A DNA stretch of 64,000 bases, taken from assembly GCA_051362555.1 (NCBI GenBank), contig CM120644.1, positions 11,306,567 through 11,370,566 of the forward strand, in the 5' to 3' direction. This document shows, one piece after another, positions 9,130-64,000 of the stretch. How positions within the stretch are numbered: position 1 is the first letter of the stretch; the number at the start of each line of letters is the position of its first letter. A program made the position numbers and the translations under genes. The DNA is from Lingula anatina (Eukaryota; Animalia; Brachiopoda). The notes beneath the pieces were generated by a model. It was not told where the DNA came from and made no database searches. It worked only from the letters and a program-made list of their open reading frames with translations.

Positions 9130-9189
<60 letters not shown>

Positions 9190-14567: not shown

Positions 14568-14659
14568 TTCTATCTAGGGCAGTAGCACAATATTACCACT
14601 CAAGGCTTCAGTCACAAGTGCACAGATAACATAAGATTGTTTACAGTTGTCTGAATGAG

Positions 14660-21015: not shown

Positions 21016-21058
<43 letters not shown>

Positions 21059-32710: not shown

Positions 32711-35002
<2,292 letters not shown>

Positions 35003-36792
35003 ATCTACGTCCAACCTTTCGAACTGCATTCCACCGAAATGTTACATTTGAACTTTTTCATTTGTGACGATAAGTCAGACTTTGAGAAACAAAATTTCAT
35101 CAGGGTATTCAAAAAACAAAATCATAATCAAAAGAAAAAGATCAAATTTATTTTTTGGAGCTGAATAAAGAATTAAAACCTATGCTAGTGTTTTGTTTGT
35201 ACACTTTATTGGCAATCATTATGACTAGAAGTAATTAGTTTTTCAGAATATTGGATATGCTTATTTGGTACACTGAGTGTCAGGGCACAGTAAAAGCTAG
35301 CTTGTTAAAAATCTCGTGATGGGATCGCTTTTGCTAGTATTTCTTTTACTTGTATTGCTGATATGGGTTATATACATGTATGAAATCAAGATCGAGCTGG
35401 CAATACGGAAATCTAGAACCTAGGGTAGCTTTGGGGGGGAAGGGACGGGGTGTAGGGAGGTTGGTGGTGGTAGTGGTGGTGGTGGTGGTGGTAGTGGTGG
35501 TAGTGGTGGTGGCGGGGTGCTTTCCTTCTCTTACCAAATATGAGCTGGATATTACGCAGATTAGGATTTCATCATTTACCTGCCCTCAGGCTTTCTCTAA
35601 CTTTGCCACCTCGCTTGATAGGCTAGACAGCTTTTGTTGCCGTTTTTTAAGTATCCAGGGATATAAAAAAAAACCCAGTAAAATGCGCCAATTAAATAAA
35701 AATAGACAAATTCTTTTCTGTTTTGCATCGCACTTTTAAACTTTTAAACCAACTCTTCCCATTTAAAATTATTCGAAATAGAAAGGTGAACATCGTTATC
35801 TATTTCACAAACAAGGTGCTAATGGTCACTAAAACTCAACGCAATAAATACGTTAACGATAAAGTTATAATTGCTTTTACATGAACAAGCACTTAACGGG
35901 AGCACCAGTATCTACGCCTTAGTTCGCATGTATGTTATAGGCCCTATAATACTGTAACGATGCTTTCTCCAATTTAAAAGCTACCATTTTATTGAGCTAT
36001 ATTAGGACGCAATAAGGTAGGTAGATTTTACCTGACTGAATAGTAATATCTTGAATGAACGCTATAAATGAGATGTAAGCTTAAAGCAATATTTTGATAA
36101 GTTTGAAAGTCCCGCAGTGTCTGGTTGAATAATTTGATTTATTCATATCAAAGCTTTCTATCCAGTGCGAGCAATGTGGGCTGCACTATCGTGTCATATA
36201 GCGACATTTTGCATGGTTGGGGAAGTCAATAAAGTGGATGTTGGGTTATATAAGGATAGCAAATAACCATATAGCACTTACGATTTTATTGGCATTATTT
36301 TGAAGGTAGACAGAGAATGAAATGATTTTATTTTTAGTGTAACAGGAGTTGGGCTGTCCCGGAAAAGGGGGGGGGGGTTGATTCTGATTTCTTTAAACAT
36401 TGTAATTAATGATGTCTCCTCCTTAACCATTTGGAACAGTTTAGAACTATGATTCAGCTATACTATACTAGCTATACTAGGCAAAATTCTAATTTTAAGA
36501 GGGGACCATTTGGGTGATGTTTTGCAGAAATCGAAGGGGGGGGGGCAGGACCCCTCTGGCACCCCCTAAATCCACCCCTGATATAAATAAGCCTTCTCAA
36601 TAAGTGCAATTTCATTCAATTTTCTATTTATAGCCTTGAAAGAAACGACTTTACATAGAAGCAAGACCGCATAGAAGAAAATCATTGATACACCTTCCGA
36701 TTGCGCTGCCAACCGCTTCTTAATTGCACAGCAGACGAATTTCTAATTCCTCTCATTTGAAGGAGATTTAATTTAAAATTTAAATCTTAAAG

Positions 36793-37014
36793 ATGGAGAT
36801 GGCAAAATTATTTATCATTTTTGCTTCGTTGACTATAGTGGGACTGCCGACAAGAAAAGGTCTTTTCGTCCACTATTATGTTGGCGAGGATATGGAGGAA
36901 GGCGAATTCTCTGAGGAATGGACAACTCCCGGGAATAGTGACGAAGTGGTCATCGTCGACTCCGTTGAGGGAGAGGGCAACGATGAAATCGATATTTTTT
37001 TTAATGATAAATGA
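36793..37014 (+). CDS. Tubulin-tail micropeptide unit 1 (73 aa): hydrophobic leader + alpha-tubulin C-terminus
   Basis: [24 protein letters not shown] then [19 protein letters not shown]...DSVEGEG. Tubulin-like 3'UTR with AATAAA at 37209. Confidence 0.6.
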
Positions 37015-37351
37015 TCTCAACGCCCAGCGTCCTGAACAGCATAAGTTCCACCGTGACCTTACATATTTACTTTTAATGTGACGATAAATAAGACATTTCT
37101 TGATAAAAGAACATATATGCATCATTTTATGGTGTTTTTGAGAAACAGTCGAAATTTTATCACGGTAATGAATCTCAAAAAAGAAAAAAAATGTATTTTG
37201 GGGAATTGAATAAAAACGTGTGCTGGCATTTTGTTTGTACACTGTGATGGCAATCTTATGAATAACTGACAAACTGATCCACCGACTACATATTCACTCC
37301 TCGGAGGGATGTGGTTACAGTAGCAACCATGCAGCTAGCAAATGGAGCTAA

Positions 37352-37564
37352 GAGACCATTCCCACAGATATTTTAGATCGATCTATCTCCCTGGGGAGTC
37401 TCACTTGAATGCTGTCAACTTAACCGGCTTAAATGTCTGTCCCGCCTACTAAAATCTGTAAGGGGGTAATTAACTTTCTTGCTCGCTCGGCTCCCGGAAG
37501 CTGACAGCAATTTATCGTGAACCCCCAAGGAGTTGGGTCGATCTAAATCTGTGGGAACCCAGTC
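37352..37564. mobile_element. PIF/Harbinger-like MITE (TAA duplication)
   Basis: Imperfect TIRs (CATTCCCACAGAT...AGATCGA / TCGATCTAAATCTGTGGGAA), TAA on both sides, empty site in the sister unit at ~39290. Same family at 42695-42921, ~54416-54631, partial at 60420-60485; related at ~17840-18090 and ~4260-4500. Confidence 0.8.
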
Positions 37565-38603
37565 TAAGAGAATTCATAGTCAGCTCTGCAATATTAAGGG
37601 TGGTGGGGATTCATGCCCCCTCCACCTTCCCCGTTCACTCTTCCTGTCCTTAGAGCTCAGTATATAGGCCAGTACCAGTATCTGTACCACAGTTGTCATG
37701 TTTGTAATATATGAAACCGTAACGATGCTTTCTCCAATTTAAAAGCTTTTTCATTGAGCTATATAAGGACGCAATAAGGTAGGCAGATTTAACCTGACTG
37801 AATAGTAATGGTCATATCTTCAGATATCTTAAATGTACATCATAAATGAGATGTAAGCTAATAACATTATTTTGAGAAGTTTGGAAGTCCCGCAGTGTCT
37901 GGAAATATAATGTGATTTATTCATATCAAAGCTTTCTATCAAGTGCGTGCCATGTGGGCTGCACTATGGTGTGATATCATCTCATATGACTACATTTTGC
38001 CTGGTTGGGGAATTCAATAGAATAGATCTTGGGTTATATAAGGATAGTAAATAACCATACAGCACTTACGATTTTATTGGCATTATTTTGAAGGTAGATA
38101 TAAGACAGAATGAACTGATTTGATTTTTAGTGTAACAGGGGGTTGGGCTGTCCTGGAAAGGGGGGTGGGGGTGATTCTGATTTCTTTAAACATTGTGATT
38201 TATGATGTCTCCTCCTTTACCATTTGGTGCAGTTTACAACTATGATTCAGCTATAGACCTACTAGGCAAAATTGTAATTTCAAGAGGGGACCATTTGGGT
38301 GATGTTTTGCAGAAATCGAAGGGGGGGGGGGGGGTCAGGACCCCCCTTACATCCCCTAAATCCGCCACTGATATAAATAATTCGTAAGCCTTTGCTCAAT
38401 GCAATCTCATTCAATTTTCTATTTATAGGCTTCAAAAAAAAAAAAAAAAAAAAAAAAAAACTTTACAAAGAGGCAAGACCGCATAGAAGAAAAACATTGA
38501 TACACCTTCACATTACGCTTCCAACCGCTTCTTAATTGCACAGCAACGGATTTCTAATTCCTCACTTTTGAAGAAGAATAAATTCAGAACTAAAATGTTA
38601 AAG

Positions 38604-38936
38604 ATGGAGATGACAAAATTTTTAATCATTCTTGCCTCGTTGACTATAGTGGGAATGCCGACGAGAAAATGTCCATTCGTCCTCTATTATGTCGGTGAGG
38701 GTATGAGGGAAGGTGAATTCTTTGAGACTCGTGAGGATTTGGCCGCTCTTGAGAAGGATTACGAAGAAGTCGTCGTCGACTCCATTGAGGAAAAGGGAGA
38801 GAGCGAAGATGGGAGCGGGGAGGATATAGAGGAAGGTGAATTCTCTGAGGAATGGTCAGTTTCGGGGAATAGTTACGAAGATGTCAACGCCGACTCCGTT
38901 GAGGAAGAGGGCGACTATGAAATCGGTTTTTTTTAA
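38604..38936 (+). CDS. Tubulin-tail micropeptide unit 2 (110 aa) with two tandem tail modules
   Basis: [33 protein letters not shown]...[17 protein letters not shown]...GDYEIGFF. Alternative ATG at 38595, AATAAA at 39151. Confidence 0.6.
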
Positions 38937-39589
38937 GCTGATAAATGATCCCAACGCCCAGCGTCCTGAACAACATATATTCCACAGTGATGTTCCATAT
39001 TAACTTTTAATGTGACGATAAGTAAGACATTTCTTGATAAAAGAACAAATATGCAACCTTTTTTTTTTTTTTTAGGCGTTTTTGAGAAACAGTCAAAATT
39101 TCATCAGGGCAATGAAACTCAAAAGAAAATCAATGTATTTTTGGGAACTGAATAAAGAATTTAAACGTGTGCCGGTATTTTGTTTGTACACTATGATGGC
39201 AATCTTATGAATAACAGACAAACTACATGTACATATTTACTCCTCAGAGGGAAGTGATTACAGTAGCAACCATGCAGCTATAGCAAATGGAGCTTAGAGA
39301 ATTCATAGTCAGCTCTGCAATACTAAGGGTGGTGGGGATACATGCCCCCTCCCCCTTCCCCGTTCACTCTTCCTGGCCTTAGAGCTCAGTATATAGGCCA
39401 GTACCAGTATCTGTTCCACAGTTGTCATGTTTGTAATATATGATACCGTAACGATGCTTTCTCTAATTTAAAAGCTTTTTCATTGAGCTATATTAAGACG
39501 CAATAAGGTAGGCAGATTTAACCTGACTGAATAGTAATGTTCATATCTTCAGATATCTTAAATGTACATCATAAATGAGATGTAAGCTA

Positions 39590-41106
39590 CAGACTTGACA
39601 TTTAATATGGAATATTATTTTCCAAGTCATTTTTCATCAGTTTTTTGCTATTTTGCTGACTGATAAATGAAAATAAGGATTAAAATCGTGTTTTAATAAC
39701 TTTAAATTATCTCTTTGATGTCATGCTGACACCAGCTCATTGGTTTAATAACGGTCATAGTAACGGTCGCTGTTACGCCTGGCCTCTTCTGTCTGTTATC
39801 AGCGCTCTCAAGCAGCAAGGCATTCCTTGGGAAAAGTTTTTAGAGTTCAATCTGGAATATTATTCCAGGCATCGGTCCAAAATTGTCCAATTTGGTCCAG
39901 TTTTGATGTAGGGCATGTAAGCAGTTGATTCGGCGAGTAATGGCTTACCCACATATTGTCTATGCGGTTCAAATGTGGCGATTTTGATGACCAGGGTAGC
40001 TGCTCATTCCCTTGGTTCTGTAAGTTATCTGCTATTAAAAGTGCTCTGTGTGAACCGGCAATCTGACCGTGCAAACTAAAATTGTTCCTAAGGTGCCCCC
40101 TATCAAATGATAGTCAAGTGGTTCTCAGATTATTCCTTTATTTGATCTGGTTCAGGTTTTCATCAATGACTACCATTGGTGTTTTGGCACCAATGTGGTA
40201 TCCACTCCAAATACTAACGCTGTCAATGACCCGTGTCACTTTACACGCGGTACATGCTTCGTCGTAGGCCTCTTCTGGATGTCTGTAAACTCTGTTTTGA
40301 CTAGCTGGGAGGTACAGGTGAAATCTGACCTCAATAAAGAAAGTCACGCGGTTTCAGTGTTCTACCCAGAAACGGTCATGGCCCCCAATTCATTAGAGAA
40401 ACAGACGACGATGTTTTGCTGTTTACAGTGGGTACCTCGCAGGTCATCTGGTATTCTAACCTGCTAAAACCAGTTTGGTGCTCGTTAAGGGCTTGAAAAA
40501 CGCATTTTGGTGGCAATTTACCCCTCGTTCTGAACAGACTGGGTGGCTTATGTTTAGTTGCAGCAGCGTATCCCGAAAGACAGTGCGTCCTGTACCCTGG
40601 AGATAAGATTTCGATGCATTGGGTGTGACCTCTGTGTAGTTACATCAGTCTGGGCATTACTCTATAAAACTGTGCGGACCGTTCCGTTTGGCGCTGTAAT
40701 CTGTCTGGTAATGTCTGTCTTTTTCGCGCCATTCTGCCACAAATTTACAAATTTGTAAAGCACTCATTGGCTCATTTTACGCACTGCAAAACTGACCGCT
40801 TCCATGCAAAATTTCAAATTCTTCTATGGAATAGTTGCCGACATACGGATACTTTTTTGACAGAACCAAGATTTGAAGCCAAGCATTGACCAGCCCAAAG
40901 GAACACTACCCAATTAAATCACCGCATTTTACATAATGTAGCAGCGCAACAGACATGGAAGTCAGTTAATTGGTAGCGACACACCTGACTACACACTTCT
41001 CCATTCACAAATCTTATATGAGATCGGAGTTTTTTTGAAAAAAGAACGAATTTTTACCTAGGCATACCTTCGAAACTGAAATATTCCATATAAAATGTCA
41101 AGTCTG
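39590..41106 (-). mobile_element. Decayed Tc1/mariner DNA transposon
   Basis: 27-bp TIRs CAGACTTGACATTTWATATGGAATATT. TA duplication supported by the empty site GATGTAAGCTAATAAC in sister repeats (~37850, ~41775). Frameshifted transposase fragments on the - strand (FFIEVRFHL, VSIWSG, PWSSKSPHLNRIDNMW, resembling WPxxSPDLNPIENxW). Confidence 0.88.
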
Positions 41107-42470
41107 TAATAACATTATTTTGAAAAGTTTGGAAGTCCCGCAGTGTCTGGAAAAATAATTTGATTTATTCATATCAAAGCTTTCTGTCCAGTGCGAGCAA
41201 TTTGGGCTGCACTATCGTGTGATATAGCTACATTTTGCCTAGTTGGGGAATTCAATAAAGTGGATGTTGGGTTATACTGTATATGGATAGTAAATAACCA
41301 TATAGCACTTACTTTTCTATTGCATTATTCGGAAAGTAGATATAAGACACAGATTGAACTGATTTGAATTTTAGTGTAACAGGGAGTAGGGCTGTCCCGG
41401 AAAGGGGGGGGGGGGTGATTATGATTTCTTTAAACATTGTAATTTATGATGTCTCCTCCTTTACCATTTGGTACAGTTTAGAACCAATATATGATTCAGC
41501 TATACTAGGCAAAATTCTAATTTCAAGAGGGGACCATTTGGGTGATGTTTTGAAAAAATCGGAAGGGGGGGGGGGTCAGGACCCCCCTTACATCCCCTAA
41601 ATCCACCAATGGTATGAATAATTCGTAAGTCTTTGCTCAATGCAATTTCATTCAATTTTCTATTTATAGCCTTGAAAGAAACGACTTTACATAGAAGCAA
41701 GACTGCACAGAAGAAAAACAATATGAATAGTAATGTTCACATCTTCAGATATCTTAAATGTACATCATAAATGAGATGTAAGCTAATAACATTATTTTGA
41801 AAAGTTTGGAAGTCCCGCAGTGTCTGGAAAAATAATTTGATTTATTTATATCAAAGCTTTCTGTCCAGTGCGAGCAATGTGGGCTGCACTATCGTGTCAT
41901 ATAGCGACATTTTGCATGGTTGGGGAAGTCAATAAAGAAAATCTTGGGTTTCATAAGGATAGTAAATAACCATACAGCACCATATTGCCATTATTTTGAA
42001 GGTAGATATAAGACACAGAATGATTTGATTTTTAGTGTAACAGGGGGTTTGGCTGTCCCGGAAAGGGGGGGGGGCAGTTAATTCTGATTCCTTTAAACAT
42101 TGTGATTCATGATGTCTCCTCCTTTACCATTTGGTACAGTTTAGAACTATGATTCAGCTATACTAGGCAAAATTCTAATTTCAAGAGGGGACCATTTGGG
42201 TGATGTTTTGCAGAAATCGAAGGGTGGGGGGGGGGGGGCAGGACCCCTCTGGCACCCCCTAAATCCGCCACTGATATAAGTAATTCGTAAGTCTTTGCTC
42301 TATGCAATATCATTCAATTTTCTATTTATAGACTTCAAAGAAAAAACTTTACAAAGAGGCAAGACCGCAAAAAAGAAAAACATTGATACACCGCTTCTTA
42401 ATTGCACAGCAAACGAATTTATAATTCTTCACTTTTGAAGAAGATTAAATTCAGAATTAAAATATTAAAG

Positions 42471-42665
42471 ATGGAGATGAAAAAATCTTTTATCGTTTTT
42501 GCTTCGTTGACTATAGTGGGACTGCCGACAAGAAAATGTTCATTCGTCCACTGGTATGTCGGTGAGGGTATGGAAGAAGGTGAATTCTCTGAGGCTCGTG
42601 AGGATTTGGCCGCTCTTGAGAAGGATTACGAAGAGGTCGCCGTCGACTCTGCATTTGAAGAGTGA
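42471..42665 (+). CDS. Tubulin-tail micropeptide unit 3 (64 aa, 3' end frameshifted)
   Basis: [64 protein letters not shown]. The old ...GAG TAT end follows out of frame and a MITE sits at the former stop. Confidence 0.5.
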
Positions 42666-42694
42666 GAGGGCGGAGATTGGAGGGGGGAGTATTA

Positions 42695-42921
42695 GGATGC
42701 ATTCCCAGAGATTTAGATCGATCCAGAGATTTAAAATTAGATCGACCTAAGTCCTTGGGGGTTCACACTAAATTGCAGTCAGCTGAGCTTGCACCATAGT
42801 TAATTACCCCCTTTACAGCTTTTAGTAGGCAGGACAGACGCTTAAGCCGACTTAACTGACAGTAATCTAGTGAGACTCCCCACAGGGATAGATCGATCTA
42901 AAATCTATGGGAATGGGGTCC
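42695..42921. mobile_element. PIF/Harbinger-like MITE inserted at the ancestral stop codon of unit 3
   Basis: GGATGCATTCCCAGAGATTT...AAATCTATGGGAATGGGGTCC. Flanks rejoin to GAGTATT.AACTGATAAATGA as in unit 4. Confidence 0.8.
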
Positions 42922-44435
42922 TAAACTGATAAATGATCCCAACGCCCAGCGTCCTGATAAGCATATGTTCCACCGTGATGTTTCATATAAACTTTTAACG
43001 TGACGACAAGTAAGACATTTCTTAATAAAAGAGCAAATATGCATCATTTTATGACTTTATTGAGAAACATTCAAATTTTTATCTAGAAACTCAAACGAAA
43101 ATAAATATATTTTTGGGAATTGGATAAGAGCTAAGATGATTCAAAGTCAGCTCTGTAAGGCCTCATTCAGAACAGTGGACCGACTAGTCTGAGGATCAAA
43201 TATGGCCGACCCACTTAACTACTTATAGTAACTGGCTCGCGCTGCTAGTTATTACGCCGCGGGATATTTAGGGCACAGACCGTGATCATAAGACATACCG
43301 CGAAAAGAAAATAGAATTTAGAAAGTAGACATTGCATGTGAATGAAGCCTTAAACTCATTTAAAACCAACTCTTCCCATTTGAAAATTATTCATAATAGA
43401 AAGGTGAACATGATTCTCTATTTCAGAGACTAGTTGCTATTGCTCGCTTAAACTTAACACAATAAAACTGCTAAAGATAAAGTTATAATTGGTTTTACAT
43501 GTACAAGCACTAAGCGGGAGTAGGCCTACCAGTATCTGCGCCCTAGTTGGCATGTTTGTAGTATAATACAGCAACGATGCTTTCTACAATTTAAAAACTT
43601 CCATTTTATTGAGCTATATTAGAACGCATTAAGGTAGGTAGATTTAACCTGAATGAATAGTAATATCTTAAATGTACGTTATAAATGAGACGTAAGCTTA
43701 AAGCAATATTTTGAAAAGTTTGGAAGTCCCGCAGTGTCTGGAGGAATAATTTGCTTTATTCATATAAAAGCTTTCTGTCAAGTGCGTGCAATGTGGGCTG
43801 CTCTATGGTGTCATATCATTACATATGACTACATTTTGCCTGGTTGGGGAATTCAATAAAGAAGATCTTGGGTTATATAAGGATAGTAAATAACCATACA
43901 GCACTTACGATTTTATTGGCATTATTTTCAAGGTAGATATAAAACACAGAATGAACTGATTTGATTTTTAGTGTAGCAGGGGGTTCGGCTGTCCCGGAAA
44001 GGGGGGGGGGGGTTGATTCTGATTTCTTTAAACATTGTAATTTATGTCTCCTTCTGTACCATTTGGAACAGTTTAGAACTATGATTCAGCGATAGGCCTA
44101 CTGGGCAAAATTCTAATTTCAAGAGGGGACCATTTGGGTGATGTTGTGAAGAAATCGAAGGGTGGGGGGGGGGGGGGGGGCAGGACCCCCCCCCCCTACA
44201 TCCCCTAAATCCGCCACTGATATAAATAAGTCTTTGCTCAATGCAATGTCATTCAATTTTCCATTTATAGCCTTCAAATAAAAAACTTTACAAAGAGGCA
44301 AGACCACATAGAAGAAAAACATTGATGCACCTTCGGATCACGCTGCCAACCGCTTCTTAATTGCACAGCAAACGAATTTCTAATTCCTCACTTTTGAAGA
44401 AGATTAAATTCAGAATTAAAATGTTAAAGATAGAG

Positions 44436-44654
44436 ATGACAAAATTTTTAATCATATTTGCCTCGTTGACTATAGTGGGAATGCCGACGAGAAAATGTCC
44501 ATTCGTCCACTATTATGTCGGTGAGGGTATGGAGGAAAGTGAATCCTCTGAGGCACGCGAGGAATGGACAGCTCCGGGGCAGGATTACGAAGCGGTCGGC
44601 GTCGACTCCGTTGAGGGAGAGGGAGAGGGCGAAGATGGGAGCGGGGAGTATTGA
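44436..44654 (+). CDS. Tubulin-tail micropeptide unit 4 (72 aa, ends GEY)
   Basis: [72 protein letters not shown]. Alternative ATG at 44421. 3'UTR homology truncated after ~25 nt. Confidence 0.58.
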
Positions 44655-45097
44655 ACTGATAAATGATCCCAACGCCAAGCCTTGTAATTTCTGCTGTCTC
44701 CTCCTTTATCATTAGAGTGAGGATATTTCGGTATTCAGGGATGTGCCTGGTCACAAGATTTTTCCTGCACCTAGGGGTTTGGTTGTCCCTTGCGGGTGGT
44801 TGATTATCTTTTTTTACAATGTTATCTCTAACATTTCATCCTAGACCATTAGAGTGAGGAAAAGGACATTGATGATATATATCTGATTTACAAATCTTTG
44901 CTCAGTAAGAGCAATTTCATTCAATTTTCGTTTTTTACTTGAAATAGCCTTGAAAGAAATGACTTAACGTAGAGACAAGACTGGATAGAAGAGAAAACAT
45001 TGATACACCTCACGCTTCGCTGTCAACCGCTTCTAAATTGCATAGCACACGGATTTCTAATTACTCTCTTTTGAAGAAGATTTAATTAAGGTGTAAA

Positions 45098-45325
45098 ATG
45101 TTTCAGACGGAGATGACAAAACGTTTGATCGTTTTTGCCTCGGTGATTCTAGTGGGAATGTCGACAAGGAAATATGTTTTTGTCCACTCGCATGATGACG
45201 AGGGTATGAAGGAACGTGATAACTATGAGTATCGTGAGGATTTGGGCTTTCTGGAGAAGGATTACCTGCCTGTCCTCGAGAGAACGGGTGAAGAGGAACT
45301 GGAGGAGCAATGGACGGATATATGA
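45098..45325 (+). CDS. Tubulin-tail micropeptide unit 5 (75 aa, highly diverged)
   Basis: MFQTEMTKRLIVFASVILVGMSTRKYV-FVHSHDDEGMKERDNYEYREDLGFLEKDYLPVLERTGEEELEEQWTDI*. Tubulin-like 3'UTR follows. Confidence 0.6.
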   Translation: MFQTEMTKRLIVFASVILVGMSTRKYVFVHSHDDEGMKERDNYEYREDLGFLEKDYLPVLERTGEEELEEQWTDI

Positions 45326-45769
45326 TCCCAACGCCCATTGTCCTGGACAGCATGTATTCCACCGAAATGTTACACATTGACTTTTTTGTGAAGAAGTCAC
45401 ACATTTCTAGTCAAAAGAACATTGTGCATTATTTATACGATCTATTAAGGGTTCAAAATTTCAACAGGGTACAGAAAAATAAAGATAAAAATAAAATAAC
45501 ACTATACTAATTTTCCAGCGAGAGTTAAGCTAGTAACAATGCAATAATCAAATAAAAATAGATAAATTCTTTTCTGTCTCGCATTACGCATATTTATCGT
45601 TATTGGGATATCAATAACATAGATCGCATTCACAACGATTTGAGCCAGGCTTTACATATCCTGCGACTAAATATGGCGGACGTACATGAAAGGAAAACCG
45701 CCTAATCTTTTAATAGTCTCTCCGCCTCTCACACGCTTCCCCACACGTCGTCCCTGCGGGGTACAGTCA

Positions 45770-46413
45770 TTTAATCTCGACTTTTTGATGAACCTAACAT
45801 CCAGCGTTTTGAACAGCATTTTACCGAAATGTTACATGTTGACTTTTGTGACCATTCTTTACCAAAGCTAGGATCCAAAATATTTATTTTGGATCCTAGA
45901 CCAAAGGTAATGTGCTTCATTTTCATGGAGTTGACTGTTTTCGAGAAACCGTCAAAATTTGATCTGGGTACTGAAAAAATAATAAAAAATAGCAAATTCA
46001 TTTTTTAGAACTGAATAAACAATTACAACGTGTGCTATGTTAGATTTGCACACTGTGTTGGTAATCATGTTGAATATCAGTTTTAAAAATTGAGAAATGG
46101 TTTGTTTCTACCAAGCGCATAGCCTTAAAGAGAATAATTATAGCAATTTTAATATAGTATACTTAAAATGAACAAAAATAATTTAAACACAATCATATCG
46201 ACGTACCGTGTCCTGACACAGGGAACTACCCACGTATTTCCTTTATGTGCCTTGGTGAAAAGTGGAGGGGTATTGGGCGGGTATTTCCAAATGTGCCCTG
46301 AAAATCATTCAGCTTATGACGTCATTATTTAGCCGCCCTAAAGTTTTCTGCATCTCTGCCGCTTCACTTGGTAAGCAAGACAGTTTAGCCAGTACTAGAA
46401 TGCAATAATAAAA

Positions 46414-46473
<60 letters not shown>

Positions 46474-47295
46474 ATAAATAAATAAATAAATAAAGAATAA
46501 TAAAAATAATAGATTGGTTTTTTTTGTTTTGCCTCACACTTTTAAAATCTTTTCAAACCAACCACGCCCATTTAAAATGCTCCGAAAAAGAAAACTCAGA
46601 ATTATTGTCTGTTTCACAAACATGATAATGATAAATTAAGCTCGACACAATAAACATGTTTGTTTATATATGTACAATATAATTGCAAGCAGTTAACGGG
46701 AACACCAGTATATGCGCCGTAGTTGTCTTGATGCTAATGCTAAATGAATCTCAACACGACAAAAATGTTATAGATACACTCATATTTGTTTTTATATGTA
46801 CGGTACAAGCACTTAACGGGAGTACTAGATTCTGTGCTATAGCTGGCATAATAGTTGGTACATGTATAATACTGTAATGATGCTTTCCCCAATTCAAAAG
46901 CTGCCGTTTTATTGAGCAATATTAGGATGCAAAAAGGTAGGTAGATTTTATTTGACTGAATGATTATGCTGATATCTCCAAATATCCTACATGTACATTA
47001 TAATTTTACTGTCAACTTAAAGCATTATTTTGATAAGTTTGGAAATCGCGCAGTGTCTAGTAGAAAACCTGATTATAAAAAGGACGTAGAACTATTATAA
47101 GGATGGGGTGTAAACGATGTTTTTTAATTGTATTTTTCAATGTCCACTTTCTTGCATTACTACAACTCCCGACTTCGCTGCCAACAGCTTCGAAATTGCA
47201 CAGCACGCCGATTTCCAACCACTCTCTTTTAAGGAAGATTAATCCATAGGTAAAATGTTTAAGACGTAGATGGCGAAACGTTCGATTCTAATTTA
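45770..47295 (+). pseudogene. Broken micropeptide unit(s): orphan 3'UTR (~45770-46080) plus upstream block and leader start (unit 6) truncated next to the inverted tubulin C 3' end
   Basis: CCAGCGTTTTGAACAGCAT...CTGAATAAA 3'UTR homology. Conserved upstream block (46780-47250), then ATGTTTAAGACGTAGATGGCGAAACG (MFKT*MAKR) with no tubulin tail after it. Confidence 0.6.
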
Positions 47296-47649
47296 TTCAA
47301 TGATGTATTCTTTTTCACTCTATAGTATCATTGCTATAAAATTCTATTTGTTGCAGGCAAATTATTTCTCAAATCGTATAGTCATAATGATTGCTTACGC
47401 ATGTGTAGAAACTAAACAACATCAAAAGTTTGAATTATTATTCAATTTCAAAATATGAATTTGATCTTTAACTTTTATGATTTTTGCAATGCCCTGATAA
47501 TATTGGACCGTTTCTTAAAGAACTTCATGAAAAAGTGCACAATAATCTTTTGAAAAAAGTCTGACTACTCGTCACAGATGAAAAAAGTTCATATTTAACA
47601 TTCCATTGGAATGCTGTTTGAGACGCTGGACGTGGAATAATGTATCTGT

Positions 47650-53341
<5,692 letters not shown>

Positions 53342-53846
53342 GTTGAAGACGGTTATGTTGATGAACCATACAAGTAAGGTTAATCGAAGACTCCGCGGAG
53401 TAGATTTTGCTCTTTGACTTGAAGTGTCCGAGCAAAATTCAAAATATGACGTCAACAAGTGAAAAGTGTTCTATTTATACCACGGTTTGCCCAGCAGTTC
53501 GTTGAGTGGAAAACTCAGCAGTTGATTGGTAGACGTAGCGTTGCCCGAGTGAATGGCTTAATTATGGGTTAGGGATGAGCAACAGCGACCGTTGAATGCC
53601 CTGGTGCTGTACAGTCGCATCATAATCGCGCTAAGTAAGTTGAAACGTAATGCCCTAATCTGAGCCCAATAATCATAACAGTGCGCAGACTCAGCGGCAT
53701 GAATAGAATTGAGCTAGCACCGTTTGAAATTTCGAATTCGGTGTAACTTGACAGAGAGGCCACATGAGAATCCGCTTCCTTTCCTTTTGTACAGGTAAGG
53801 CTCGCCCTGAATTTTGACCTACTTAAGCCAGCTAACCCTAACCATT

Positions 53847-54156
53847 ACTAGAAAAGCACCCCGAGAGCGCAGACCTTCGCCAAGGCAGCGATTTTTGATT
53901 ATTATTGATTGATTATTGATTCCGGATCACCACTAATCATCTCTTTCCTTGGCCCGCTTCTGACAGATCTTGAAAATTTCATCAAAATCGGTCCATAACT
54001 TTTTGAGTTATGTTGATGATTGATGATTGATTATTGATTGATTATTAATTCGGATCACCACCAAAAACTAATCACTTCTAAGTTAACCCGTTTTCGACCT
54101 ACCATGAAAATTTCATCAAAATCGGTCCATAACGTTTTGAGTTATGTTGATGACAA

Positions 54157-54187
<31 letters not shown>

Positions 54188-54231
54188 CAGACAAACAGGG
54201 GTGAAAACATAACCTCCGTGGCGGAGGTAAA
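53847..54231 (-). mobile_element. Helentron/HINE-like non-autonomous element
   Basis: Minus strand begins TTACCTCCGCCACGGAGGTTATGTTTTCACC, then (GTCT)n and two core repeats. Partial relative at ~29640-29858. Confidence 0.6.
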
Positions 54232-55337
54232 ATAACTTAATAAAGGGCAGACTTTCTTTAACACGGACCCTCAATTTCGTTATAAAGGTTAGGGAAAAAT
54301 TAACACGATTTCAAGCGTCAGACAATCAACGCTGTTTGCACTTAGCGAGAATTCCCGGTGATGATGAAGTGATTGCGCAAACAGTATTCTACGGGTCATT
54401 GGTATGGGGATTCCAAGAGCGTATCCCCAGAGATTTAGATCGATCCAACAAGATCGACCTAACCCCCTGGGGGTTCACGCTAAATTGCTGTCAGCCGACC
54501 GAGCATGGTAGCTAATTACCCCTTTAAAGCTTTTAGTAGGCGGGACAGACATTTAAGCCCGGTAAGCTGACAGTAATCTAGTGAGACTCCCCACGGGGTT
54601 AGATCGAACTAAAATCTGTGGGAATGGGGTCCAAGCGTATGAACAGACAGAAAAGGTACATATATTATTTTGCAGGAAAAAATTTAAGTGTAGTATAATT
54701 CCACGTGCGGCAGATATTAATATTAACAGAAACATTATATGTACCTCGACACAGTCCTACTTATGTAACTACTTGCACTTAACGGGAGTACCAGTATCTA
54801 CGTAACCAGTATCTACGTCAAAGCGGCACGTTTAAAAAAATCAAATTTATCATATACTTAACGACGCTTTCTCCAATTCAAATTGCCCCCACACTGTATT
54901 GAGCTGCAATGGACGCCAAAAGGTGGGTAGGTTTTACTGAATGGTAAATTGGTATCATGTAAATTTTAAATGGGATGTGAAATAAGGGATAATTTTGATA
55001 GGTTAGGAAATCTCGCATTGTCAGGAAGAAAGGCTTGATTCATTCAAAACAAAATTTTCTGTAAAGTGTTTTGCAGTTGAGCCTGCACTATTGTGTCATA
55101 TAGCTACATTTTGTCTAGTTTGATAATTCAGTAAAAAAGGGGACATTGGTTGATTATATGGACGGTAAATAACCATGCAGTTTTTATTTAAAATAGCCTC
55201 GGAAAAAAAACAACTTTACGAGGAGATGAGAGAAAATATGGTACATCATTCGACTGTCCGGACAACTGCTTCGAAATTGCACAGAGCGCTGATTTCCAAT
55301 CCACCTCTTTCAAAGAATATTTCATTCACAAGTAATA

Positions 55338-55565
55338 ATGTTTAAGACAGATTTGGCCAAATGTTTAATCGCTTTAGCCTTGTTGGCTTTTGTGGGGGTA
55401 TCGATAGGGGTTTGTGCTTTCGTCCACTGGTGTGACTGTGAGGGTATGGAGGAAGGTGAATTCTCTGAGGCTCGTGAGGATCTGGTCGCTCTGGAGAAGG
55501 GTTACGAAGAGGTCGGCGTCGACTCCGTTGAGGGAGAGGGCCAAGATGAAGTGTATTACTCGTAG
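55338..55565 (+). CDS. Tubulin-tail micropeptide unit 7 (75 aa)
   Basis: [75 protein letters not shown]. Classical signal-peptide shape with a V-x-A cleavage motif. Confidence 0.62.
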
Positions 55566-56102
55566 GAATGATCCCAGCGTCCTGAAGAGCATATGCTTCA
55601 CTGAAACTTTACATATTAAGCTTTTGTGACGAAAAGTCAGAAATTTCTTGTCAAAAGAACTTTGCATGCGTTATTTTATGAGTTTTTGAGAAACAGTTAA
55701 TATTTCAGCAGGGTGTTGAAAAAATCAACAGGCAATAACAAAAATATCTTTGGGAACTGAAAAAAGGACAAAAACGTGTGCTGGTGTTTTGCTTGTACAC
55801 TGAGTTGGCAATCATAATGAATGTTAGTTTTCAAAATTGGAAAATTGATAATTTTTACCAAGCGCGTAATCTTTAACTGAATTTCATATCATTTATATGT
55901 TCATATTAAAGAATAATGTAATGTTATTTATTAAACAAAATCTTAATTAGAATAATAATTATGCAAGCACTACCTCCTAATCCATTGCCGAAAAGTGCTT
56001 TGGGGCAGAGGGTGGGGGTGGGGGTGGAGTGGGGATGGGGGGTAGAGAAGCGCGTTTTCCCTTTCCAAATGTGCCTTGAAAATTAAATACAGCTTACGAT
56101 GT

Positions 56103-56307
56103 CAGGGGCGGATTTAGGCCTCCTTCTGGGTCTTCCGGAAGACGGTCAGATTTTTAAGTTTATATTGACGGGTATCTAATATTTTCTGTCGGAAGACGGT
56201 CAAAAATTGAAGACGAATTAAAACAAAGATAATTTGGAAGTTAATTTGGAAATCAAAACAAAGATAATTTGGAAGACTGTCAGAAAATATCTCTGGATCC
56301 GCCCCTG
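56103..56307. mobile_element. Short TIR element with 5-bp duplication GATGT
   Basis: CAGGGGCGGAT...ATCCGCCCCTG flanked by GATGT. Empty site GCTTACGATGTCATC at ~59707. Confidence 0.75.
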
Positions 56308-57346
56308 GATGTCATCATGTAGCATTAAAATGCACGCTACTTATATGTATGAACTGAATGTAAAGAAACCGGCGGCCAAGTTTATTCAGAATAAGAAAAT
56401 AACAGATTAGGCCAGTAAACGAGCATATTTTCCCATTGAGGTTGGAAAAAATTGGTGACAAAGGTTTCTCAACTGATTCTGGTCCGTTGAAGGCCCAATA
56501 TAGCCCAAAAAAAATTCCCCATGAATCCCCCCATGGCAAAGTCTCATTTTCCACAAAAATCCAAAATGGCCGCTATTGAATGGGGTGGGTGGACTTGAAA
56601 TCCATAACTTGGGAACCCAATGTCACAGAAACATGCTTTAAGTATCAATTCCTACTAAGTGAGGGATCCCCAATCTTTTGAAACTAGTCTCAAGGTCACT
56701 GGAGCAATACACAGTAAATAATCTACTACAAATACAACAAGTACTCCGGGTATCGACTGTTTTCCCCACGCTTACCTCAGATTTATTTCAGACACCCTGA
56801 GTTTGCCATGATCAAAACGTGCATCATCATCATCATGTCGATGCTTGTTCAGTGGTGAGAACTGTATTTGTAGCCGCCAAGTACTCTCTAACAGGATGGC
56901 AGATATTATAGGCAAATTTTCCAAAAGCCAGAGAACCAAATGACAGTCTAAAGACATATCTGTGAATATCTTGTGAAAAATCAATCCGTCGCCCTGTTAG
57001 AGGTTAGCCGCCCAGAGCTCGGTGAATACATTAGTCAACGACAGCAAACACAATGCACAAACTGCAGGCGGCCTATTCAGTTATCTAGACCTCAGGAAAT
57101 ATGGTGATACATACATACATACATACATACATACATACATACAGGGACACATGCCCCCCCTCCACCCTACCCCCACTGTATACTCCTCCAGTCTGTAGAG
57201 CTCAGTGAATATATCGGTCACCGACATAAAACGTAAGGTGTATAGAGGAGTTGTATTCAGTGCTGTGACATTCGATTTGAACTGGAGATACAAACTGTAT
57301 AGATCTACGTATACAGTACACGCCTCAGAGCTCGGAAGACACGTAG

Positions 57347-57535
57347 TTGACTCTTGTGGGGATGTCGATAGGGATATTTCCTTTCGTCCACTGGTATGTC
57401 GGTGAGGGTATGGAGGAAGGTGAATTCTCTGAGGCTCGTGAAGATTTGGCCGCTCTTGAGAAGGATTACAAAGAGGTCGGCGTCGACTCCATTGAGAAAG
57501 AGGAAGGAGAAGTGTATTATTACTTTCATGAATGA
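57347..57535 (+). pseudogene. Tubulin-tail micropeptide unit 8, 5'-truncated leader
   Basis: (L)[20 protein letters not shown]...[16 protein letters not shown]. Start of leader replaced by a block also present at ~60540-61210. 3'UTR and AATAAA (57741) intact. Confidence 0.55.
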
Positions 57536-58926
57536 TTTCAAAGCCCAGCGTCCTGAACAGCATATATTCCACTGAAATTTGACATATTTTAATATGTCAA
57601 AACTTTTTGTGACGATAAGTCGGACGCTTCTTGTCAAAAGAACATTGTGTGCATTATTTTATGAAGTTTTTGAGAAACAGTCAACATTTTATCAGGGTGT
57701 TGAAAAAATCAACAGAAAATAATTTTATCTTAGGGAAGTTAATAAAGAATGTAAACGTGTACTGGTTTTTTGTTTGTGATGGCAGTCATTATAAATACAA
57801 ATTTTTAAAATGGGAAAACGAATATTTTTCGCCAAGCACGTTACCCCTAACAGAATTTTAAAGTAATTACATTACAGAATTCTTTAAAAGGTTCATAAAA
57901 ATTATAAACACTATCATTTTTATGTACTGCGTTCTAACCCAGGGAAGTCCTCATATATTTTCTTAAAGTGCCTTGGTGAGAAGGGGAAAGGGTGTATGGC
58001 GGGTGCTCGTGGTGGTGTGCTTGGCGCTTCCCTTCTCATTCCAAATATGCCCTGAAAATCACGAAGCTTAAGATTTCATTATTTAGCCGCTCTCCGGCTC
58101 TCTGTAACTTAGATGCCTCGTTTTGTAGGTTAAAAAACTTTCGTTGTCATATTCAAATTTTCTGGCGAGAGCTAGACTACTAAGCAAAACAATAATCAAA
58201 CAATGATAGATGAATTCTTTTCTCTCTTGCACGGTGCTTTGCACTTTTTCAACGCCTTTTAACTCTTTATGATTATTGGAAATAGAAATGTCAACATCAT
58301 TCTCTAATATAGAAACATGATGCTACTGATAAATAACACTAAATTCAACAAAAATGTAATTTATAATGGTTTTTTCATACGTGGAGTTAAAGCACTTGAC
58401 GATACACGTAGTACCAGTATCTGCGTTAAAATGTTTCATTTCCTATATAATACTGTAACGATGCTCGCTCCAATTCAAAACCCGCCGTGTTTGATTGATC
58501 AGCAATATTAGGACGGAGGTAGGTAGATTTTATTTGACTGAATAATATACTGATACATCCAGATATCCTTAATGTACATTATAACTGAAATGTGAACATA
58601 AAGCATTATTTATGTAAGTTTGGAAATCCCCACGCTGTCAGGAAGAAAGGCTTGATTATTTAAAGGACGTTAATGATTATAAGTATAGAAGAAAAACATG
58701 GAGCTTCAACGTTTTTATTTGCATTTTTCGATTTCCACTTTCTTGCAATGATACGTTTTACGTTTTTACTGGTATTTTTCAGTTTTCACTTTCTCACTTG
58801 AAAAGCCTTAAAAACCCTACTTTTCGCAGAGACAAGACGGTTGAGAAGAAATAACTTTGATACACCTTCCGACTTCGCTGTCAACCTCTTCGAAATTGCA
58901 CAGAACGCGGATTTATTTTAAAGGAG

Positions 58927-59136
58927 ATGGGATTCACAAGTAAATTATTTAAGGCGTTGGCGAAATGTTTGATCGTTTTCGCCTTGGTTACTCTGGTGGG
59001 TATGTTGGTAGAGAGCCGTGCTTTCCTCCACTTGCATGAAGATGAAAGTAATGAGGATCAAACAACCTATTGGCCTCTTGTGGATTTTGCCGGTGCTGAA
59101 CAGGACTATGATGGGAGCGGCGATGACTCCATTTAG
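58927..59136 (+). CDS. Tubulin-tail micropeptide unit 9 (69 aa, most diverged)
   Basis: MGFTSKLFKALAKCLIVFALVTLVGMLVESRA-FLHLHEDESNEDQTTYWPLVDFAGAEQDYDGSGDDSI*. The TAG replaces GAG (REEGEVYYF continues in frame). AATAAA at 59382. Confidence 0.55.
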   Translation: MGFTSKLFKALAKCLIVFALVTLVGMLVESRAFLHLHEDESNEDQTTYWPLVDFAGAEQDYDGSGDDSI

Positions 59137-61900
59137 AGAGAGGAAGGAGAAGTGTATTACTTTCATGGACGATCTTAACGCCCAGCCTCCTGAACAGCAT
59201 ATATTCCACTGAAAAATGACATATTTTAATATGTTAAAATTTTTTTGTGACGATATGTCGGACATTTCCTGTCAAAAGAACATTGCGTGCATTATTTTAT
59301 GAAGTTTTTGAGGAACAGTCAACATTTCATCAGGGTGATGATATAATCAGCAGACAATAACAGACTTATCGTTGGGAACTGAATAAAGAATTAAAGCGTG
59401 TGCTGGTGTCTTGTTTGTACACTGTGATGGCTAAACAATGAATAATGGAAATATTGGAAATATTGGAAAATGATTTGTTTTCGCTAAGCAAGTTACCCCT
59501 AACAGAATTTTAAAGTAATTACATTACAGACTTAAAAAGAATTCATAAAAACAATGAACACAAGCATGTCTACGTGCCGCGTTCTAACCCAGGTAAGTCC
59601 CCATATATTTTCTTAACTTGCCTTGTTGAGAAGGGGTGGGGGTGACGGGCAGATGTGTGTGGACTGCTTTTTTTTCTCTTTCTAAGCACGCCCTGGGAAT
59701 CACGCAGCTTACGATGTCATCATCTAGCAGCGGATCCAGGATTATTTGAAGGGGGGCCGATTTTTACTAATGACAGGCTGCGAATGCGAAGCCGACACCC
59801 CCCCCCCTTGGGCTGGGCTTCGGAGCCCGCTAAAGAGCCCCGTTAAATTTTGGGATTTTAGAGCGCGAACAGTACCATTTGGTACGGTTTAGAACTATGA
59901 TTCAGCTAGTCAAAAATTATTATTTAAAGAAGGGATTATTGGTATGATTTTTTTTCAGAAATCGAAGGGGGGGGGGTAGGCCCCCTTGCCCCCACCCCCT
60001 AAACCCGCCACTGCTTAGGTTTTCTGTGTGTCTGCCTCCTCGCTTAATAGACTAGTAAGTCGCTGTGTTCTGAAATAAAATTGTCCGGCGAGAGTAGATC
60101 CACTAATATGCATTATTATTCAATGAATTAAGATAAATTCTTTTCTGTCTTGCATCGCAATTTTTAAAAGTTTTTCCAAACGAACTCTACGTATTTAAAA
60201 TTATTTAAAACAGAGAGATAAGCATCATTCTCTTTTCCAGAAACGAGTTGATATTGCTAAATCAAAGCTCAACACAATAAAATTGTTAACGATTTTGTTT
60301 ATTTTTATATGTAGACTACTTGCACTGAACGCGAGTACCAGTATCTGCATTGGAAGTGCCATGTTTGAGAATATCGGGCATATGAAATACTATATTGATG
60401 CTTTCTCCAGTGTAAAGCTGACAGCAATCTAGTGAGACTCCCCAGGGGGATAGATCGATCTAAATATCTGTGGGAATGGTCTCTTATACATGAACAGAAT
60501 ACAAAGTAAACAAAGCCCACGGCCAAGTTTATTTAGAAAAAAAATTGCTAAGCAATATAAACCATCTACTACAAACACAGCAAGTTATCGGGATATCGAC
60601 TGTTTTCGTCATGCTTACCTCAGCGTTATTTCAGTCACCCTGAGTTTGCGATGATCAAAACGTCCATGAGTTCGTCATCGTGTCGATGCTTGTTCAGTGT
60701 AGAGGACTGTATTTGTAGCCGCCAAGTACCCTCTAACAGGGTGGCAGATATTATAGGGAAATTTTCCAAAACCCAGAGAATCAAATGACCGTCTATTTAT
60801 CTAAAGAAATATCTGTGAATATCTTGTGAAAAATCAGTCGCCCTTGTAGAGGATAGCCGCCCAGAACTAAGTGAATACATTAGTCAACGACAGCTAACGC
60901 AATGCACAAAATGAAGGCGGCCTATTCAGTTGTGTAGATCTCAGGAGATACGACAATACATGTATACACGCCTCAGCGGGCAGCCAGTCGGGCAGTTGTT
61001 ACAGGGACACATATGTCCACGTCCCCACCCTACCCCACCCCACCCCACCCCCACCGTACACTCCTCCAGTCTCTAGAGCTCAGTGAATATATCAGTCACC
61101 GACATAAAACGTATGTTATGTAGTGGAGATGTAATCTTTGCTGTGATAGCCAGGGTGAACTGGGGATACAGACTGTATACATATAAAGTACACGCCCCAG
61201 AGCTCAGTAGACAGGGAGTCAAAAGCAAGCATTTATTATCAAGATGTTATCTGACATAAAGAGAACGTACGGAGTCGTAGTCAGTTGATTCTCATGGTGC
61301 TTCAGAAAATAAGGGCTTCATGATAACCTCTACCAAGATGGCAGATTATATATAGGGAAAAACGGAAAAATCCAGACCAAAATGACTTTCTGTTTTTCTG
61401 GAGACATATCTGTGAATATCTGTGAATATCTGTGATCTGTGACGTGTTCAAAACCCCTATAACTATACCTGCATTAGCCGTCTGTAGAAGACGTATACTC
61501 TGTACAGGAGAGTATCTGACAACATATTGATACTCAGGTTGATTTACGGTGACTGGGTACGCACTGTGTGTGTGTCCTGTAGAGGAGGCACCGCCAGTGC
61601 TCCGAGCAACCGTGTGATTTTCAGGGTGAGCCGCCAGTTAATTCTCGGCAACACAGACATCACTGAATACGTTTGCCGGCTTACTAATGCGGTCATGAGA
61701 GTATTCCGTGCAATATATCATGTCTGCTACATCATGTAGCGCCGCTTAATATTGAAATAAACTGTAAAATTTTAAGCTTTGGAAGAGAGTTGTGACCAGT
61801 TAAAGTTTCATTTCACGTGTCTGTATCTCTGTACGTCTGGTCGTCAGTCTCAATCAGGGTGTGTGCGTGCGTGTGATTGCGTGCGCGGTTTGTTCCCGTG

Positions 61901-61942
<42 letters not shown>

Positions 61943-62631
61943 TTGAGTGGGGCATTTTCATGATTCACACTATGGCTTTAAACGAATTATAAAATGTTGC
62001 ATAGGAATATATTATCAGATGATATAGGAAAGGGCAGAAGAGCGATTGCAGGAATGGACAGGGGTAGTTCATAAAATACCAGTTCTCTGTAAAAAAAACT
62101 TATCCACAATATTGTAAGTCTATAAAGATGGAAATCACATATCTATATCTGTGAAAATAAAATTTGGAGCTATACTTGCTACATATTAAACTGCATAATA
62201 TATTCAGTCGTAACAACCCCCCCCCCCCCCAACACACACACACAAAAACACGCACATATACACATAGACTCATAACACCATCCTCAATGGGCATATTTTA
62301 GCCGGTATTCGTAATTTCAAAATGCACTAGTCCATATGCAATGACTCATGCCGCTGAAGCCGCGCACCAAGATATCCAACGGTCGCCGTTGCTCATCCCA
62401 AACCTATAAACCATTCACTCGGGCAACGCTGTCTTCGTCTACCAATCATCTGCCGAGTTTTCCACTCAACGAACTGCTGGGCACTGCGCCGTGGTATAAA
62501 TAGAACGCTTTCCCTTGTCTACGTCATATTTTGAATTTTGCTCGGACACATCAAGTCAAGGAGCAAAATCTACTCCGTAGAGTCATCGATTAACCCTTCT
62601 TGTACGGTTCATCAACATAATCGTCTTCAAC

Positions 62632-62634
62632 ATG
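62632..62634 (+). CDS. Probable alpha-tubulin D, ATG-only first exon; rest of gene beyond window
   Basis: TCTTCAAC-ATG-GTGAGT. Region ~62360-62920 is an inverted paralog of the tubulin C promoter, exon 1 and intron 1 start (~53060-53600). TATAAA at 62495. Confidence 0.72.
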
Positions 62635-64000
62635 GTGAGTAAGAGACTGAATGTAATGAATTAAAGGGAGTCGGTTTTATTTTATTCCATTTCCTTAAAT
62701 CTTGCGTTGAATGAATAAGAATAAGAAAGGTGTCTTCATTTTAGTGTGCGCACCACCTCAATTAGACAGGAAATCATGAAGTATTAACGTCAGCGGGCTG
62801 CGTTCCTTTTTTAACGAAAGGGGAAGCGTAATATGTGTATCACATCGTATGTAATATGCCGGGTTTAGCACTCGAGATAGACTGCCTTTATTCTCTAGGT
62901 TTATATTGCTAATTCATGCCGTATGCGCATTAGATACCCGCAGTGCATATTTCTCAGTGCCATCTGCTGTAGGCTTCAAGGCAGCTATAGCTTCATGTTA
63001 TTTGTGTGGCGATCAATGATTTTTGCGGTGAACGTGCTAGGAAAGATGCTTGGTGTTTCCCAGAAATGAATTTGTGTTCCCGTTGAGCTAGTATGTTCCT
63101 TAGAGATACGGATATATAAACGAGAGCAGGATCCAAAAATACCCAAGTGTAATAAAATACGAAAAATAAGTAGATTTGTTCTTTCATCATATGATATAAA
63201 ATGATAAAATGTGATATCTTTGTTATATCTGCTCTCCCATGCGCGGGAAGACTATGCTTGAATGAGATTGATGAATGTCCCATTTTCCCGCCGGAATGTT
63301 GAGAATCCCATAGATCACATCAGTGCTCATCTCATCGTCTGCAGAATTTTTAATGTTTTCCTTAAATGAAGTTTTTCTCCATTTGGGGTCACAGACGGTG
63401 GTTAGTACGGGAATACGTTAAGCTGCCACGTGTACTTGTCTTTAATATGACTGAAAAGACGACACAGTTTTAATGAGATGGTTTCTTCCTCACTCAAAAA
63501 AAGCTGTCATAAAGTATTGCTCATTTGACCTTTCGACATATGCAGTTTAATATTCGCAGGGAAGATACAGATTCCTTGGGAATGCGGGAGGGAAAGAGTG
63601 CAATCCCATAGTTATATATCCATCAGTGTTTTCATAATAATATGCAATTTGATAAAATCAAGATTTCAGTGCCGGTTATTATTCCCAGTACACGCACTGC
63701 TTATATTCAGGTTTCAAATTTCACCTGAGATAAGAATATTTCATATACATTTTGCTTGATTAAGTATACCCGGTATAAATCTATATAAAAACGCAAAGGT
63801 GTGCTGCTGCTTTCTTACTGGGGAGGTGAAATTAAGAGCAATTAACTCTTAGTTTTAAAATCGTAACGGTTTTAACGTGTAAATTTCTACCAGGTGTGGC
63901 TCGCCTAGATCAGTGAAAGTCGAGCCATATGATAGCGTAGCAAAACATGCAGGTATATTTTCACGCTGAGGCCTCGTTTTCAATTCTTTCTAATATCCAA

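Follow-up and report, generated by a model that had tools for sequence, protein, structure and literature searches.

The window analysed here, a 64,000-nucleotide stretch of the brachiopod Lingula anatina (GenBank assembly GCA_051362555.1, contig CM120644.1, positions 11,306,567 to 11,370,566 of the forward strand; G+C content 39%), holds a cluster of alpha-tubulin genes and, interspersed with them, an array of nine short units, in eight of which a hydrophobic leader is joined to the C-terminal tail of alpha-tubulin. Three alpha-tubulin genes are intact: T1 from 22157 on the forward strand, T2 at 32707-35002 on the same strand, with an ATG-only exon 1 and two introns, and T3 at 53345-47650 on the reverse strand, an inverted gene that divides the unit array. 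Only the first exon of a fourth gene, at 62628, falls within the window, and the units lie among T2, T3 and the start of this fourth gene. The units are two-exon genes: a common exon 1 without coding sequence is separated by a GT-AG intron from the coding exon, whose 3' untranslated region (UTR) derives from tubulin. Together they form a real, young and lineage-specific family with at least one expressed member.

All units lie on the forward strand, and eight of them contain an open reading frame (ORF) that, as the earlier note on this DNA had claimed, translates from a hydrophobic leader into the alpha-tubulin tail from F404. Unit 1 (36793-37014) encodes 73 amino acids (aa) and has a 9-nucleotide (nt) in-frame deletion in its tail; unit 2 (38595-38936) encodes 113 aa owing to an in-frame tail duplication whose second half is unit-1-like. 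That second half (38816-38936) resembles the unit 1 tail with the 9-nt deletion included, so that the unit 2 tail is, judged by its sequence, an in-frame recombinant between copies. Unit 3 (42471-42665, 64 aa) ends in a premature stop about 10 codons ahead of the homologous end and combines a tail 95-97% identical to the tubulins with a repeat inserted in its 3' UTR. Units 4 (44421-44654, 77 aa), 5 (45098-45325, 75 aa, tail 69-72% identical to tubulin) and 7 (55338-55565, 75 aa) follow, and unit 9 (58927-59136, 69 aa) has a tail only 61-65% identical to tubulin and a stop about 14 codons early. In unit 8 (57347-57535) a repeat at 56715-57347 has cut the leader, which the earlier note had rightly called truncated; there is no ATG before the leader remnant and no signal-peptide start, while the tail is 94-97% identical to tubulin. 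Unit 6 (46769-47286) retains exon 1, intron and a leader remnant with an in-frame stop, and is tail-less; a 62-codon ORF (47270-47458) starts in this remnant, runs antisense into the 3' UTR of T3 and has no Pfam match.

The fusion itself stands as described: seven units read from an ATG-initiated leader of 24-32 codons in frame into the tail at F404. Two details of the earlier note are to be refined, namely that identity to tubulin begins around R402/A403, one or two codons before the tail proper, and that in units 2 and 4 in-frame ATGs (38595 and 44421) precede the starts it gave. Its inventory of eight ORFs holds, although it overlooked the upstream exon, the intron, unit 6 with its missing tail (47156-47286) and, at 60301-60422, what is left of a further exon 1. 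Since leaders are only 59-97% identical between copies, the units are not assembly duplicates. A comparable hydrophobic leader precedes just 103 of 47,760 scanned positions (0.2%, the units included). No functional alpha-tubulin is encoded, for the ORFs span 64-113 aa as against about 450 aa and none of the seven matches the tubulin Pfam model; Rfam at gathering thresholds gave no match between 35000 and 62000.

Upstream of the coding exons, a block ending in a conserved GT donor occurs in seven full copies and in remnants at 46656 and 60301. The exon 1 block of unit 1 (35854-36016) ends at the conserved donor AG|GTAGGT; those of units 2 (37638-37778), 3 (39368-39507), 4 (43472-43633) and 7 (54752-54922) are followed by that of unit 9 (58374-58518), which is non-coding and contains two short upstream ORFs, and by a tenth block at 60301-60422 that is a remnant cut by a repeat. 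A second block, lying before the leader, is present in seven full copies, and parts of it survive in units 6 and 8 and at 41642. Splice signals comprise the conserved donor in seven exon-1 blocks and acceptors in seven units, including unit 5, whose acceptor at 44947 has no exon 1 of its own. The unit 3 intron has grown to about 2.8 kb through an insertion and a partial duplication; that of unit 9 measures 264 nt (58519-58782, GT..AG). Profile searches with both upstream blocks returned no match in tubulin genes. An in-frame ATG is kept in all seven leader-bearing units, and no single ATG is common to all. Downstream, the unit 9 3' UTR (59178-59542) is tubulin-derived and carries AATAAA at 59382.

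Transcription was examined in seven of nine available raw-read RNA runs of the same species (X1-X4, X6, X7 and X9) from three studies (P1, P2 and P3). The region of units 1-5 (35800-45600) was tested in X1, X2, X4 and X7, with 6-25% of each run read, and that of units 7-9 (54700-59700) in X1, X3, X6 and X9, with 6-30% read. The unit 9 splice junction, 58518/58783, is crossed by 21 reads with 14 start sites in X1 and by 11 reads with 8 start sites in X3, all sharing the direction of the tubulin mRNA reads, and by none in X6 or X9. In X1 the depth across unit 9 runs 19.8 on exon 1, 0 on the intron, then 13.3, 4.4, 1.1 (ORF), 7.3, 4.5 (3' UTR) and finally 0; in X3 it is 14.8 on exon 1 and 6.0 and 2.1 on the 3' UTR. 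Exon 1 depth is 0 in X6 and X9, and sense reads on the 3' UTR occur only in X1 and X3, the two junction-bearing runs. Because X6 shows nothing on unit 9 despite roughly tenfold more tubulin reads, the unit 9 signal is not tubulin cross-mapping. Over exon 1 of unit 1, 22 reads in X1 and 19 in X2 carry a unit-9 letter, with none in X4 and X7. Taken together, unit-9-like RNA is present in all three P1 runs (two directly, one indirectly) and absent from the four P2 and P3 runs (two directly, two indirectly). The check by RNA sequencing that the earlier note had proposed thus brought out spliced sense RNA from a unit-9-like copy (21 + 11 junction reads), and no read seen across the leader-tail junction.

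The expressed gene is an allele or sister paralog of unit 9 rather than unit 9 as assembled, since at eight listed exon-1 sites its reads carry letters other than those of unit 9, and none of the other units matches them. Many unit 9 reads end at 58910, beside an 11-nt deletion peculiar to unit 9, and the ORF of the expressed gene appears to differ from unit 9 more than its UTRs do. A TATA box at 58443 was dropped as a candidate, as reads begin upstream of it. Elsewhere the array is nearly quiet. Unit 1 reaches a depth of its own of 0.2 in one run and none in three of four, and depth is 0 in four of four runs at the unit 2 leader bin, at the unit 5 ORF bin and at the bin covering the 5' UTR and start of unit 7 (55201-55367). 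The reads that align to the unit 3 tail turn into tubulin sequence on either side and were set aside as cross-mapping; those on unit 4 have the letter of tubulin at 44593. The depth of 1.4 at exon 1 of unit 7 (X3) and of 1.7-2.6 on the 3' UTR of unit 8 may be cross-mapping as well.

Traces of constraint were sought with tests that are pairwise or per column and whose p-values are rough. At identical settings, one gap of 9 nt was counted over the eight ORF rows versus 13 gap events over seven 3' UTR rows of 200 nt, a count that overlapping homopolymer gaps may inflate; three of the 13 are multiples of three. Default alignment settings produced more gaps in the ORFs, which by eye are multiples of three among the ATG-bearing copies. 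A 63-nt leader block contains no indel at all at 59-97% identity. In units 2, 3, 7 and 8 the tails share 88-97% identity with the tubulins and the UTRs only 64-82%, which points to gene conversion, while the tails of units 5 and 9 (61-72%) are no closer to tubulin than their UTRs; the depletion of indels extends to these unconverted tails and to the leaders. Acidity persists too, for Asp and Glu make up between 11 of 37 and 31 of 86 tail residues (about 30-35%), even in tails at 61-72% DNA identity to tubulin. Other features of the tail have been lost: helix H12 keeps a near-native sequence in units 3, 7 and 8 and has lost its identity in units 5 and 9 (pN, the nonsynonymous difference, 0.26-0.43).

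The leaders have the anatomy of signal peptides. A hydropathy and simple rule scan found n, h and c regions with a -3,-1 site in seven of seven units, and the earlier note's observation of a Lys followed by an uncharged core is borne out in the seven ATG-bearing units, whose 12-residue cores have a mean Kyte-Doolittle value of 2.5-3.0. In none of these cores do D, E, K, R, N, Q, P, H or a stop occur, an outcome that random substitution matches in 9-43% of trials per pair. The uncharged stretch is about 19 residues long in units 7 and 9 (19-residue hydropathy 2.5-2.7) and about 12 residues long in units 1-5, where [PS]-T-R-K follows (1.4-1.7). As to cleavage, the -3,-1 motifs V-C-A in unit 7 and S-R-A in unit 9 do lie at the junction, so that A403 fits as the signal peptidase site the earlier note had supposed in these two of seven copies; six of seven carry a candidate site [IL]-V-G seven residues before F404, its V-G invariant, and A403 is probably not the family-wide site. 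Structure prediction was uninformative, AlphaFold giving unit 7 one continuous helix (2-31) at a low mean predicted local distance difference test (pLDDT) score of 57 and the ESM Atlas a best score of 0.76 for unit 9.

For the tails and 3' UTRs the likely donor is T2, to which seven of eight unit 3' UTRs are 69-82% identical, that of unit 4 having been replaced; the downstream flank of T2 also matches the flank after unit 8. The block order, T2, flank, units 1-5 and tail-less unit 6, would fit a tandem duplication running from the tubulin tail through the downstream flank. Unit 6 as the untouched ancestral end is consistent with this order and was not retained, a deleted copy being equally possible. 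The earlier note called the leader non-tubulin, and whole 75-nt leaders indeed score at control level against tubulin for nearly all units, while the upstream blocks are without a tubulin match. The core may be another matter. Counted from the invariant Ile codon, 45 nt of leader align with tubulin codons 384-401 at 45% mean identity; the span was picked by eye after the fact, and the gap, free to vary over 0-21 nt, was best at 9 nt. Among controls, 8 of 845 other tubulin positions and none of 282 in-frame ones reach that identity; other spans were weaker (17-482 of 815), and units 9 and 5 are the only ones to stand out when taken singly. We therefore entertain, with more doubt than belief, the idea that the leader core is tubulin helix H11 rewritten in place.

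What might such genes do? We hold it probable, if well short of certain, that they are a young birth-and-death family of predicted secreted acidic peptides. Duplication of the tubulin tail, 3' UTR and downstream flank would have placed a tail behind a new promoter, a non-coding exon and a leader. That leader, with its Lys and 12-residue core, would serve as a signal peptide. Its likeliest cleavage point would be just behind the invariant V-G, with A403 as the alternative in units 7 and 9. The released tail of 37-86 residues could then act as an extracellular polyanion, with a secreted matrix as its likeliest setting and Ca2+, further metals or cationic proteins as its ligands. The array itself would be subject to birth and death of copies, and the tubulin genes would rewrite some of the tails by gene conversion. 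A cation-binding secreted matrix peptide is our best guess for the role of the predicted product; roles in gametes or defence suit the fast divergence and restricted expression equally well. The earlier proposal of a new family that secretes or tethers the tubulin tail accordingly gains the gene structures, the constraint on frame and core and the spliced unit-9-like RNA, and has to be squared with copies that are mostly silent, that show dN/dS (the ratio of nonsynonymous to synonymous change) near 1 and that are truncated in four of nine cases.

Several observations weigh against a functional secreted family. No listed read spans leader and tail, the unit 9 ORF is covered at a depth of 1-4 with alignments ending at 58910, and in the runs tested units 1, 2, 4, 5, 7 and 8 showed no clear signal that could be called theirs. 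Values of dN/dS of 0.98 for the leader and 1.20 for the tail are compatible with neutral drift. Four of nine units are truncated or dead (premature stops in 3 and 9; 6 and 8 dead), unit 5 is without exon 1, exon 1 of unit 9 has its two upstream ORFs, and the hydrophobic cores of units 1-5 are short. Variation by codon position in the core, 8/3/12 (p=0.026), spares second positions and so speaks for constraint, yet it comes from a region chosen after the fact for hydrophobicity and from pairs that are not independent, and p rises to 0.07 once the core is extended by one codon. Finally, Luo et al. 2015 (PMC4595640), in the part of that paper available to us, report no secreted acidic proteins among Lingula shell matrix proteins; the unit ORFs are absent from the protein collection and may not have been included in the published shell proteome search.

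Many of these points would be expected if the units were decaying partial duplicates, that is, tandem tubulin-fragment pseudogenes of which one lineage is transcribed as non-coding or non-functional RNA, the leader being an inherited accident. Neutral dN/dS, the truncated units, the silence of most copies and the upstream ORFs all agree with decay, and conversion by tubulin can hold tails open without selection, as in units 3 and 8, where tails are 94-97% and 3' UTRs 64-79% identical to tubulin. Yet decay does not readily account for the scarcity of indels even where conversion has not acted (the tails of units 5 and 9, and the leaders), for the sparing of second codon positions in the core, for start codons that turn over and are always replaced, or for splice sites conserved although exon-1 blocks are only 55-96% alike. 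On balance we regard decay as unlikely, though a rival to be taken seriously.

Two further alternatives keep the peptide and change its location. An uncleaved signal anchor displaying the acidic tail at the cell surface or in the secretory pathway would suit the roughly 19 uncharged residues of units 7 and 9 and the continuous helix of the low-confidence unit 7 model; the short cores of units 1-5 and the -3,-1 sites in all seven units speak against such an anchor, to which we give little credence. The near-native H12 of units 3, 7 and 8 would in turn allow a cytosolic decoy, a free tubulin tail competing for motors, microtubule-associated proteins or tubulin-code enzymes. Such a decoy should hardly tolerate the loss of H12 identity in units 5 and 9 or ends that are mostly rewritten, the terminal G-E-Y being retained only in unit 4, and an N-terminal Lys before a hydrophobic core generally favours a lumenal tail; of all the readings we find this the least credible.

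The statement that no family like this has been described was upheld in protein and literature searches. A search with unit 4 alone yielded no candidate among proteins of 42-135 aa, and an exact look-up of nine unit ORF versions found none in a collection of 15 billion proteins. A family profile retrieved tubulin fragments, the unit leader being present in none of 253 proteins (best 120 of 7187 and best 150 of 2166 matches), below which diverged members could rank. One retrieved protein, P0131, joins a hydrophobic N-terminus to the alpha-tubulin tail at the same residue as the units; with an unrelated leader and a native tail, as an 80-aa singleton on a 1410-base contig, it was rejected as a member and is probably a gene-calling artefact, an independent case being less likely. 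Full-text searches, in which most subscription papers were missing, turned up no secreted family made from a tubulin tail. The word tubulin appears nowhere in the main text and one supplementary file of Luo et al. 2015 (PMC4595640), nor in the main text of the 2026 chromosome-level paper (PMC13121700), whose supplements may list these genes.

The route proposed for the secreted peptides has known parallels. Type III antifreeze protein of zoarcid fishes arose from a parent that we take to be cytosolic. There, according to the accessible part of the source, the C-terminus of the parent gained a new signal peptide and was then expanded in tandem (PMC7737890). The analogy is one of route without homology, the parent here being alpha-tubulin, and the antifreeze protein is a folded domain, in contrast to a predicted acidic and largely unfolded tail. 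Sdic of Drosophila melanogaster is a young chimeric gene: in the portion of the account at hand, segmental duplication with deletion created it next to its parent, a tandem array followed, its first exon arose de novo, and the parent contributes sequence to it by gene conversion (PMC7475035). In birth beside the parent, tandem expansion, new first exon and parental conversion it resembles the units without being homologous; it differs in having two parent genes (the units have one identified parent), in retained WD40 motifs and in an effect on sperm competition, that portion mentioning no signal peptide, and its copies are far less diverged than the units. With their own closest kin, alpha-tubulin and its truncated pseudogenes, the units share the tubulin-derived tail and 3' UTR, yet they lack more than 400 residues including the GTPase domain and possess an exon 1, an intron and a leader of their own.

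Secreted acidic biomineral matrix proteins, such as vertebrate SCPPs and those of molluscs and corals, likewise combine a signal peptide (predicted here) with a short Asp/Glu-rich region, again without homology. The shell of Lingula consists of calcium phosphate. No SCPP orthologue was found in Lingula according to the sections available of Luo et al. 2015 (PMC4595640). The units, which are unannotated, are candidates for a secreted acidic peptide in an animal with a phosphate shell, where a search for such proteins had found none. Metal binding offers a lead only: the amino-terminal copper- and nickel-binding (ATCUN) motif consists, in the part of the source seen, of a free N-terminus with His at position 3 (PMC13398410), and a cut after A403 would place His third, as F-V-H in unit 7 and F-L-H in unit 9, which is possible in only two of seven copies. 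The His after F404 is kept in seven of eight tails and is inherited from tubulin. At its boldest, the story would be that Lingula turned H11 into a signal peptide in place, through a 9-nt deletion and a few polar-to-hydrophobic changes, and secretes the tail as its missing acidic mineral- or metal-binding shell peptide, with all steps preserved in the cluster; we offer this as a long shot. Although the route is familiar from type III antifreeze, we found no case that involves tubulin, which is among the most constrained of proteins, and with parent genes and near-native, diverged and dead copies side by side in one cluster, both gene birth and the origin of a signal peptide are open to direct study.

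Some further features surround the array. The promoter and exon 1 of T3 (53057-53607) and of the fourth tubulin gene (62364-62921) share 85% identity in opposite orientation, and T3 may have entered the unit array as an inverted duplicate. A short repeat element, inserted at 37349-37557, 42701-42921, 54423-54632 and 60412-60486, draws many partial RNA reads that originate elsewhere in the genome. Between T1 and T2 lies an intact long terminal repeat retrotransposon (24937-29575) with one 1308-aa ORF matching protease, reverse transcriptase, RNase H and integrase; its 148-bp terminal repeats are identical, which indicates a very recent insertion. A DUF4773 gene on the reverse strand (20199-21202) has Lingula anatina LOC106168024 as its sole match among 615 candidates, at 92% identity over 98% of 180 residues. 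A multi-exon protein kinase gene, presumably Tousled-like, occupies about 6200-15200, with Pfam Pkinase on one exon, and tandem repeat arrays lie outside the cluster at 978-1567, 9741-10366, 12435-12765 and 14658-14920.

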